From Escherichia coli (lineage in GTDB: Bacteria > Pseudomonadota > Gammaproteobacteria > Enterobacterales > Enterobacteriaceae), in NCBI RefSeq assembly GCF_048403405.1, contig NZ_CP183135.1: DNA of 64,000 nucleotides; one strand, given 5' to 3'. The first letter of the stretch is position 1. Every line of letters begins with the position of its first letter. This document shows positions 47,537-48,597 of this stretch, piece after piece. Below the pieces are notes generated by a model that had not been told where the DNA came from, did not search any database, and saw only the letters and a program-made list of their open reading frames with translations. A program made the position numbers and the translations under genes.

Positions 47537-48085
47537 TCCGCTCCACCCAACATGTTGTTTCCTTAAGGTTCTCACACCAGAAAGGACATCAACATGCTGA
47601 GCAGAGAGGACTTTTACATGATAAAGCAAATGCGCCAGCAGGGCGCGTACATTGTCGATATTGCGGCTCAGATTGGTTGCTCTGAACGGACGGTCAGACG
47701 CTACCTCAAATACCCTGAACCGCCAGCCAGAAAGACCCGCCACAAAATGGTTAAGCTGAAACCGTTTATGGATTACATCGACATGCGCCTGGCAGAGAAT
47801 GTCTGGAATAGCGAGGTTATCTTCGCGGAGATTAAGGCAATGGGTTATACGGGCGGACGTTCCATGCTGCGTTACTACATCCAGCCCAAACGTAAAATGC
47901 GTCCGTCAAAAAGAACAAGGAGAGAGTTACCGGTTAAAAGAGAAACGTAAAGCTGGAGTGCTGACCAAAAACACAACGCCAATCAGTGATGATGAAATGG
48001 TGCAAAGCGGACAGCATCAGTAACGAAAGTATTTAGCGGGCATGAAAATGGCAAATAACGGTCAAACATCGTGGCGTTGACATAG
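47537..48085 (+). mobile_element. IS21-family remnant with internal deletion fusing the istA 5' part to the istB 3' end (ends approximate)
   Basis: IstA-like N-terminus MLSREDFYMIKQMRQQGAYIVDIAAQIGCSERTVRRYLK...; IstB-like C-terminus ...GESYRLKEKRKAGVLT, compare IS100 IstB ...[16 protein letters not shown]. Confidence 0.5.
47594..47950 (+). pseudogene. IS21-family istA N-terminal fragment
   Basis: 118-aa ORF; HTH-containing N-terminus only. Confidence 0.7.
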
Positions 48086-48089
48086 TCGC

Positions 48090-48597
48090 AGTTTTGGTGA
48101 ACGAATCACAGACAAAGATGCCATGCACCAGGCTGTTGTTCAGTATGCAGAGCGGGCCGCAGAGAAACTACGTGGGGAGCGTCAGTATTGCCGGCAGGTG
48201 ACGACATTTGTACGGACATCCCCCTGAACCCTGTTACAGCAATGCCGCTGTGGAAAAGCTTTCATTGCCCACACAGGACAGCCGGGACATTATTGCCGCC
48301 GCATGCAGAGCCTTAAACCATGTCTGGCGTGAAGGGTACCGCTATATGAAGGCAGGAGTCATGCTGGCTGATTTCACACCATCGGGTATAGCGCAGCCGG
48401 GATTATTTGATGAAATCCAGCCCCGTAAAAACAGTGAAAAGTTAATGAAAACACTCGATGAACTGAACCAGTCGGGAAAAGGGAAAGTGTGGTTTGCGGG
48501 GCGAGGAACCGCCCCTGAATGGCAAATGAAACGGGAAATGTTGAGTCAGTGTTATACAACTAAATGGCGAGATATTCCCCTGGCCAGGCTGGGTTAG
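48090..48597 (+). pseudogene. 3' fragment of a umuC/mucB-like translesion polymerase gene, with internal frameshift near 48215
   Basis: Frame 1 ...QYAERAAEKLRGERQYCRQVTTFVRTSP*; frame 2 ...SNAAVEKLSLPTQDSRDIIAAACRALNHVWREGYRYMKAGVMLADFTPSGIAQPGLFDE..., matching UmuC C-terminal motifs. 5' limit approximate. Confidence 0.6.

Follow-up and report, generated by a model that had tools for sequence, protein, structure and literature searches.

The DNA that separates the RepFIB replicon from the sit/aerobactin genes in this ColV-type Escherichia coli plasmid is a 1.27-kb run of dead gene fragments. It is best explained as a recombination scar without function that consists of three gene fragments and has been retained by descent alone (probability roughly 0.92). 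The fragments are an internally deleted copy of the insertion sequence IS21 (IS21Δ), the 3′ part of an impB/umuC-type polymerase gene (impB′) and the end of the partition gene stbB (stbB′). The scar spans the DNA from the left end of IS21Δ to the border of an IS1 element. The surrounding DNA in the window, which is the whole 64-kb stretch that was analysed, is that of a ColV-type F plasmid, and positions 44533–64000 are 99.8% identical to plasmid pSA186_2. The scar is ordinary, was known already and has been annotated before, and it has no function other than as a lineage marker.

A preliminary description of the region, made from the letters alone, had reported IS21 and umuC remnants between positions 47537 and 48597. 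All of the features that it named are present and lie well above chance, with coordinates that are off slightly. The region is real, but its left limit is 47493 and its right limit is the border with IS1 at 48761/48762; the two remnants were found as described, and the third fragment, stbB′, had been missed. The features are listed in the table.

Table. Features of the scar and its surroundings (positions in the window)
Feature	Position	Strand	Content and basis
Genes left of the replicon			In order: etsABC-like efflux genes, ompT, hlyF-like gene, mig-14
Tyrosine recombinase gene, then RepFIB repA	repA 45871..46848	-	Left of the scar
Scar as a whole	47493..48761		IS21Δ (47493–48082), impB′ (48083–48597) and stbB′ (48599–48761)
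IS21Δ	47493..48082	+	Internally deleted IS21, 590 of 2,130 bp; alignment to the intact IS21 of pVir68
IS21Δ left arm	47493..47917	+	Left terminal repeat, leader, istA codons 1–108
Truncated istA ORF (istA′)	47594..47950	+	118 aa; ORF list, IS21 transposase profile and IS5376 IstA match
IS21Δ right arm	47918..48082	+	Last 34 codons and stop of istB (47919–48023), right terminal repeat
impB′	48083..48597	+	3′ part of an impB/umuC-type Y-family polymerase gene, codons 251–424 of 424
11-bp deletion in impB′	48225..48226	+	TTGCAGTAAAA missing (parent codons 298–301); alignment to the intact parent
stbB′	48599..48761	-	Last 53 codons and stop, residues 86–138 of 138, of a StbB of the Plasmid_stab_B family; 52/53 identical
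IS1	48762..49529	-	768 bp, right border of the scar; without a 9-bp target duplication (GAAAAAGCA vs GATCCCTTC)
Genes right of the scar			IS1, then sitABCD, then iucABCD-iutA

The anatomy of IS21Δ was defined by reference to the annotated, intact IS21 of pVir68, which is 2,130 bp long and encodes an IstA of 390 residues and an IstB of 265 residues. The left arm is identical at 424 of 425 positions to the left end and the 5′ part of istA in this element, and the right arm at 164 of 165 positions to the 3′ end of istB and the right terminal repeat. Against the intact IS21 of pRHB42-C22_2, the two arms are identical at all 590 positions. IS21Δ also shares 99.8–100% nucleotide identity with copies annotated by PGAP as 'IS21-like element IS21 family', as well as the same terminal repeats, istA start and istB stop. 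Identity to a named IS at this level, which is that of an isoform, indicates that IS21Δ is IS21 proper. The prototype of IS21 comes from plasmid R68.45.

Relative to IS21, which consists of the istA transposase and the istB AAA+ helper genes between its terminal repeats, IS21Δ lacks 1,540 of the 2,130 bp and has no target duplication. Both terminal inverted repeats are intact and end in 5′-TG...CA-3′ (47493 TGTCAGCGCCA... and ...TGGCGTTGACA 48082), and an inner inverted repeat pair is formed by positions 47506–47530 with 48046–48070. An internal deletion had been placed near 47905–47915 in the preliminary description; the deletion is real and the alignment to pVir68 sets it at 47917/47918, with 1 nt of microhomology (a single A common to both sides). 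The missing DNA encodes the IstA DDE catalytic domain and 231 of the 265 IstB codons. Consequently, of a complete istA, which in IS21 encodes an HTH-HTH-DDE transposase of 390 residues, only codons 1–108 are present, and of a complete istB, which encodes an AAA+ helper ATPase of 265 residues, only the final 34. No other IS21 or imp sequence was found elsewhere in the 64-kb window. IS21Δ is a dead remnant that cannot move by itself.

The istA′ ORF encodes 108 native residues followed by 10 out-of-frame residues and a stop at 47950, and the istB tail is read in a different frame. As the two are out of frame with each other, no IstA-IstB fusion protein is encoded; the pieces that had been reported as fused, the N-terminus of IstA and the end of IstB, are joined in the DNA only. 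The istA′ product matches the NCBIfam IS21 transposase profile with E=1.3e-16 (profile positions 2–104 of 294), at a score of 61 bits against a cut-off of 160, and the IstB tail gives a weak profile match (E=0.005). The 108 native residues match residues 1–112 of the IS5376 IstA structure (PDB 8B4H; E=9e-24). With the domain limits taken from PMC10122671, the native part of istA′ comprises the HTH-1 and HTH-2 DNA-binding domains and ends before the DDE domain. PGAP labels istA′ a pseudogene and the istB tail an 'AAA family ATPase, missing N-terminus'.

The second fragment, impB′, aligns at 98% identity with the 3′ 526 bp of a Y-family polymerase gene (424 aa) that is intact in an IncI1/B/O plasmid. 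In the intact module, DinI-like, umuD-like and 424-codon polymerase genes are followed by stbB and parM on the opposite strand. By its gene content (DinI-like, umuD-like, Y-family polymerase), the module of the parent of impB′ is of the impCAB type. The 11-bp deletion changes the reading frame of impB′, and the NCBIfam UmuC profile accordingly matches in two frames, with E=1.5e-15 (positions 263–296 of 422) and 3.4e-62 (positions 301–422). The umuC/mucB-like 3′ part in two frames is therefore as first described, but the shift is at 48225/48226 and not near 48215. These matches, together with those to IstA and IstB, are the ones whose lack the preliminary description had set out as counting against it.

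In impB′, the little-finger domain (Pfam IMS_C) is split over the two frames (E=1.6e-5 and 6.1e-7), and the C-terminal DUF4113 is matched with E=7e-21. The IMS catalytic domain (PF00817) and the HHH motif, which in the parent are at residues 6–149 and 181–201, are missing. There is no uninterrupted frame and no impA/umuD partner, and IS21Δ stands upstream in place of the latter. As in the impCAB-type SOS mutagenesis operons of IncI1/B/O/K and some F-type plasmids, stbB follows tail-to-tail; unlike these, the scar lacks impC, impA and the IMS domain and HHH motif of the polymerase and has gained the 11-bp frameshifting deletion.

Homology to the intact impCAB-stbB-parM module runs beyond the impB stop to 48761, and it is this stretch that includes stbB′. 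Here, the gene is truncated by IS1, which replaces the rest of it. The PF10784 domain, which occupies residues 8–79 of the intact, 138-aa protein, is lost, and the fragment gives no Pfam match. Compared to StbB (Plasmid_stab_B, PF10784), the adaptor of a ParM-type partition locus, stbB′ is thus without the Pfam domain, the start codon and the neighbouring parM. The IS21 and umuC pieces had both been called debris, and they are pseudogene fragments of the families that were named.

The borders of the fragments bear on how the scar was assembled. IS21Δ is flanked by CAGG on the left and TAGT on the right and has no target-site duplication. Each of the three simple IS21 insertions examined has a duplication of 4 bp, which is ACTA in pVir68 and ATAT in pEC012-3, the third being that of pRHB41-C23_3. 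Since a target-site duplication is missing at IS21Δ and at IS1, both are recombination joints. The missing duplications, the breakpoints and the identity of each fragment are read directly from the sequences.

Both outer states of the scar exist in other plasmids. The RepFIB flank is found empty and uninterrupted (...ACTACAGG^CAAAGTCTGG...) in 448 PLSDB plasmids, and the uninterrupted impB-stbB-parM module is present in IncI-type plasmids. Together with the missing duplications at IS21Δ and IS1, these states uphold the earlier proposal that the region marks an old junction between the replicon and the sit-iuc module. In pS88 (NC_011747.1, 4063–7486), the scar and its IS1 are the same, but iutA comes next where the window has sitA. 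This position of iutA indicates that the IS1-bounded sit-iuc block is inverted in pS88 with the scar unchanged, and the IS1 joint thus recombines as the scar stays fixed. Two further IS1 copies are present in the window: the copy at 14116–14883 lies between 8-bp direct repeats (TAATTCGG), as expected of a simple insertion, and the copy at 7760–8527 has no duplication.

Ancestral states were sought with chimeric queries, consisting of a flank and the intact IS21 interior, against PLSDB and complete E. coli genomes. For each junction, a state with intact IS21 exists as well as the empty one. On the right, the IS21 of pRHB42-C22_2 (CP056922.1) is full-length, ends at precisely this junction and is followed by the same 11-bp deletion and by intact stbB and parM. 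To the left of this IS21, 793 bp of unrelated AT-rich DNA (2502–3294) replace most of impA and the 5′ part of impB, so that this IS21 is also a recombinant joint and not a simple insertion. On the left, precisely the junction of the window recurs in pGA_Eco3, where the left end and the interior of IS21 are intact and an IS3-family element interrupts IS21 25 bp from its right end. The 5.3 kb of RepFIB DNA upstream in pGA_Eco3 equal those of the window except for one 1-base gap, and its IS21 differs from the window at 2 of 425 positions. The record of this plasmid is linear and 11 kb long, and recombination could have restored an intact IS21 to it.

Plasmids with an intact IS21 at the same left or right junction are rare. 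A record with both junctions, that is RepFIB, intact IS21 and impB′, was not found in PLSDB or the complete E. coli genomes, where only single-junction examples are present; nor was an original, simple IS21 insertion found at the exact impB site. Two candidates were rejected. An E. albertii plasmid seemed to share the IS21 breakpoint at 47917, but its fragment begins 41 bp upstream of this point; the coincidence is an edge effect of BLAST with the deleted query. The second, pEC012-3, seemed to share the left junction; its IS21 lies 87 bp further right and has its own ATAT duplication.

The natural RepFIB flank that follows 47492 in the empty site (NZ_CP119580.2, 5302–5387 and 7522–7549) contains a remnant of 115 bp, the end of which is a right terminal repeat like that of IS21 (...AAGACGGTCAAAGATCGTGGCGTTGACA). 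Insertion of IS21 beside or within this remnant has occurred twice independently, at its left edge in the lineage of the window and 87 bp in, with ATAT, in pEC012-3. The double insertion would be in keeping with a preference of IS21 for targets that resemble its own ends. The impB gene is adjoined by IS21-family elements at three sites within about 150 bp (parent nt 598, ~613–616 and 749/750). The elements are IS21 in pRHB41-C23_3 (NZ_CP055601.1, 2295–4425), which keeps both impB halves and its 4-bp duplication, ISEc62 in p510016_84 (NZ_CP025855.1, 2295–4419) and the window-type IS21Δ at 48082/48083, all in the same orientation. Their positions suggest a local hot spot for IS21-family insertion in impB.

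The most parsimonious history of the scar has five steps. In step (a), IS21 would have inserted into, or been joined to, the impB gene of an impCAB-stbB-parM module after nucleotide 749 of the gene, with its right end facing the impB 3′ part. In step (b), the 11-bp deletion would have arisen in the remaining impB tail. In step (c), the left end of IS21 would have been joined to the RepFIB flank at ...ACTACAGG, either by recombination of one IS21 copy with another or by a replicon fusion or deletion that IS21 mediated; impC, impA and the impB 5′ part would be lost in each case. In step (d), an illegitimate deletion at the 1 nt microhomology would have removed from IS21 the DDE domain of IstA and all but the end of IstB. 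Finally, as a separate event in step (e), IS1 would have cut stbB, and IS1-mediated recombination would have attached the sitABCD-iuc/iutA module. As pRHB42-C22_2 combines an intact IS21 and the 11-bp deletion with intact stbB and parM, steps (a) and (b) should predate step (d) and the IS1 event. The order as a whole and the recombination mechanism at each joint are inferred; the direct progenitor has not been sampled in PLSDB or the complete E. coli genomes.

How the RepFIB-impB joint was made bears on step (c). Instead of homologous recombination, a tandem (IS21)2 donor could have been integrated by the cointegrase form of IstA, fusing the two replicons. That IS21 acts on tandems and has a cointegrase isoform is established (PMC10122671), and a single IS21 between unrelated DNAs without a duplication has the look of a fusion junction. 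In addition, both arms of IS21Δ are 100% identical to those of the impB-side copy, in line with a single source. However, this pathway would leave one IS21 at each donor-target junction, and the window contains neither a second IS21 nor a matching 4-bp duplicate partner. Homologous recombination or an IS-adjacent deletion would moreover yield the same end product, inseparable by sequence, and replicon fusion by the cointegrase is a tentative and on balance rather unlikely origin of the joint.

Readings in which the fragments are something other than dead were weighed as well. The intact terminal repeats and inner repeat pair would also fit a MITE-like, non-autonomous element, mobilised in trans by an intact IS21 and transposed to this place. 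This is largely refuted, since IS21Δ has no target-site duplication and each junction is also known with a full-length IS21, which places the deletion event at the present site. Further, at least 1,065 of the 1,088 PLSDB records with IS21Δ share essentially one context (left flank, impB′ and stbB′), and an exact-match scan found the deletion junction in 0 of 100,044 species-representative genomes; mobility in other taxa thus lacks support but is conceivable. Sequencing or assembly errors in otherwise intact genes are refuted outright as the source of the frameshift and the deletion: the 1,540-bp and 11-bp deletions recur without a single base of difference in more than 1,000 complete plasmids that were sequenced independently, and the 11-bp gap is not of the homopolymer type.

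Complete loss of function is an assumption, and the 118-aa istA′ ORF is intact with its native start. By the domain limits of PMC10122671, this ORF is confined to the two DNA-binding domains and ends ahead of the DDE domain, and a truncated IstA might conceivably be expressed and kept as a trans-acting binder of IS21 ends, one that represses incoming IS21 or gives 'immunity' to it. This is highly improbable. The 100% conservation of the ORF is no higher than that of the adjoining pseudogene DNA and reflects recent common descent. The promoter scan was blank upstream of istA′, the promoter of a single-copy IS21 has been described as weak (PMC10122671), related plasmids still contain IS21 and PGAP treats istA′ as a pseudogene. 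Taken more broadly, there is very little chance that the gutted IS21, with both transposase-binding ends and an HTH-only ORF, either encodes a trans-dominant binder that damps IS21 or is mobilised by an intact IS21. If it did encode such a binder, IS21 activity would be damped in cells with these very common virulence plasmids. A scan of 47300–48900 for promoters and terminators gave nothing beyond the shuffled expectation. A scar retained by descent alone remains the preferred reading.

The 1.4 kb from 47400 to 48800 are present, essentially identical, in 1,095 records that represent 1,090 of 5,426 complete E. coli genomes, or about a fifth, when at least 80% of the query had to be covered. 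The same stretch is found in 1,065 PLSDB plasmids and IS21Δ alone in 1,088; in the ~23 records that differ, IS21Δ is present and less than 80% of the wider query is covered. The scar also occurs in plasmids of Salmonella and E. fergusonii. Although its biological importance is small, the five breakpoints (47492/47493, 47917/47918, 48082/48083, 48225/48226 and 48761/48762) are a precise marker for a RepFIB/ColV-type plasmid family that is present in ~20% of complete E. coli genomes. They also document how the plasmid was put together: IS21 and IS1 mark the seams between the RepFIB replicon, part of an impCAB-stbB-parM maintenance module and the sit/aerobactin module.

The same RepFIB-adjacent scar is a feature of other ColV-type and related virulence plasmids. 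Plasmid p1658/97 (NC_004998.1) is 100% identical over 47400–48800, and pS88/pECOS88 (NC_011747.1) has the same series of pseudogenes. The three pseudogenes are marked by PGAP, independently and at matching positions, in pSA186_2 and in pS88 alike, and the only difference comes after IS1, where the window and pSA186_2 have sitA and pS88 has iutA. The table of the pS88 paper has an entry 'ImpB fragment'. In the literature within reach, which does not include most ColV papers, this entry and a general list of IS elements in pAPEC-1 were the only published descriptions of the IS21Δ/impB′/stbB′ structure that were found.

Database labels for the fragments vary. RefSeq is inconsistent on the impB tail (48208–48597), which is a 'DUF4113 domain-containing protein' in some records and a 'DinB/UmuC family' pseudogene in others, and the istA stub (47594–47923) is labelled 'hypothetical protein' or 'IS21 family transposase'. 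For annotation hygiene, the RefSeq names 'DUF4113 domain-containing protein' and 'hypothetical protein' should both be understood here as pseudogene fragments. A separate discrepancy concerns iucD, the ORF of which (61022–62299) encodes 425 aa in the window. PGAP labels the gene 'frameshifted' in pS88 and in pSA186_2, which is nearly identical to the window; the C-terminus may truly vary, or the label may be a quirk of annotation.
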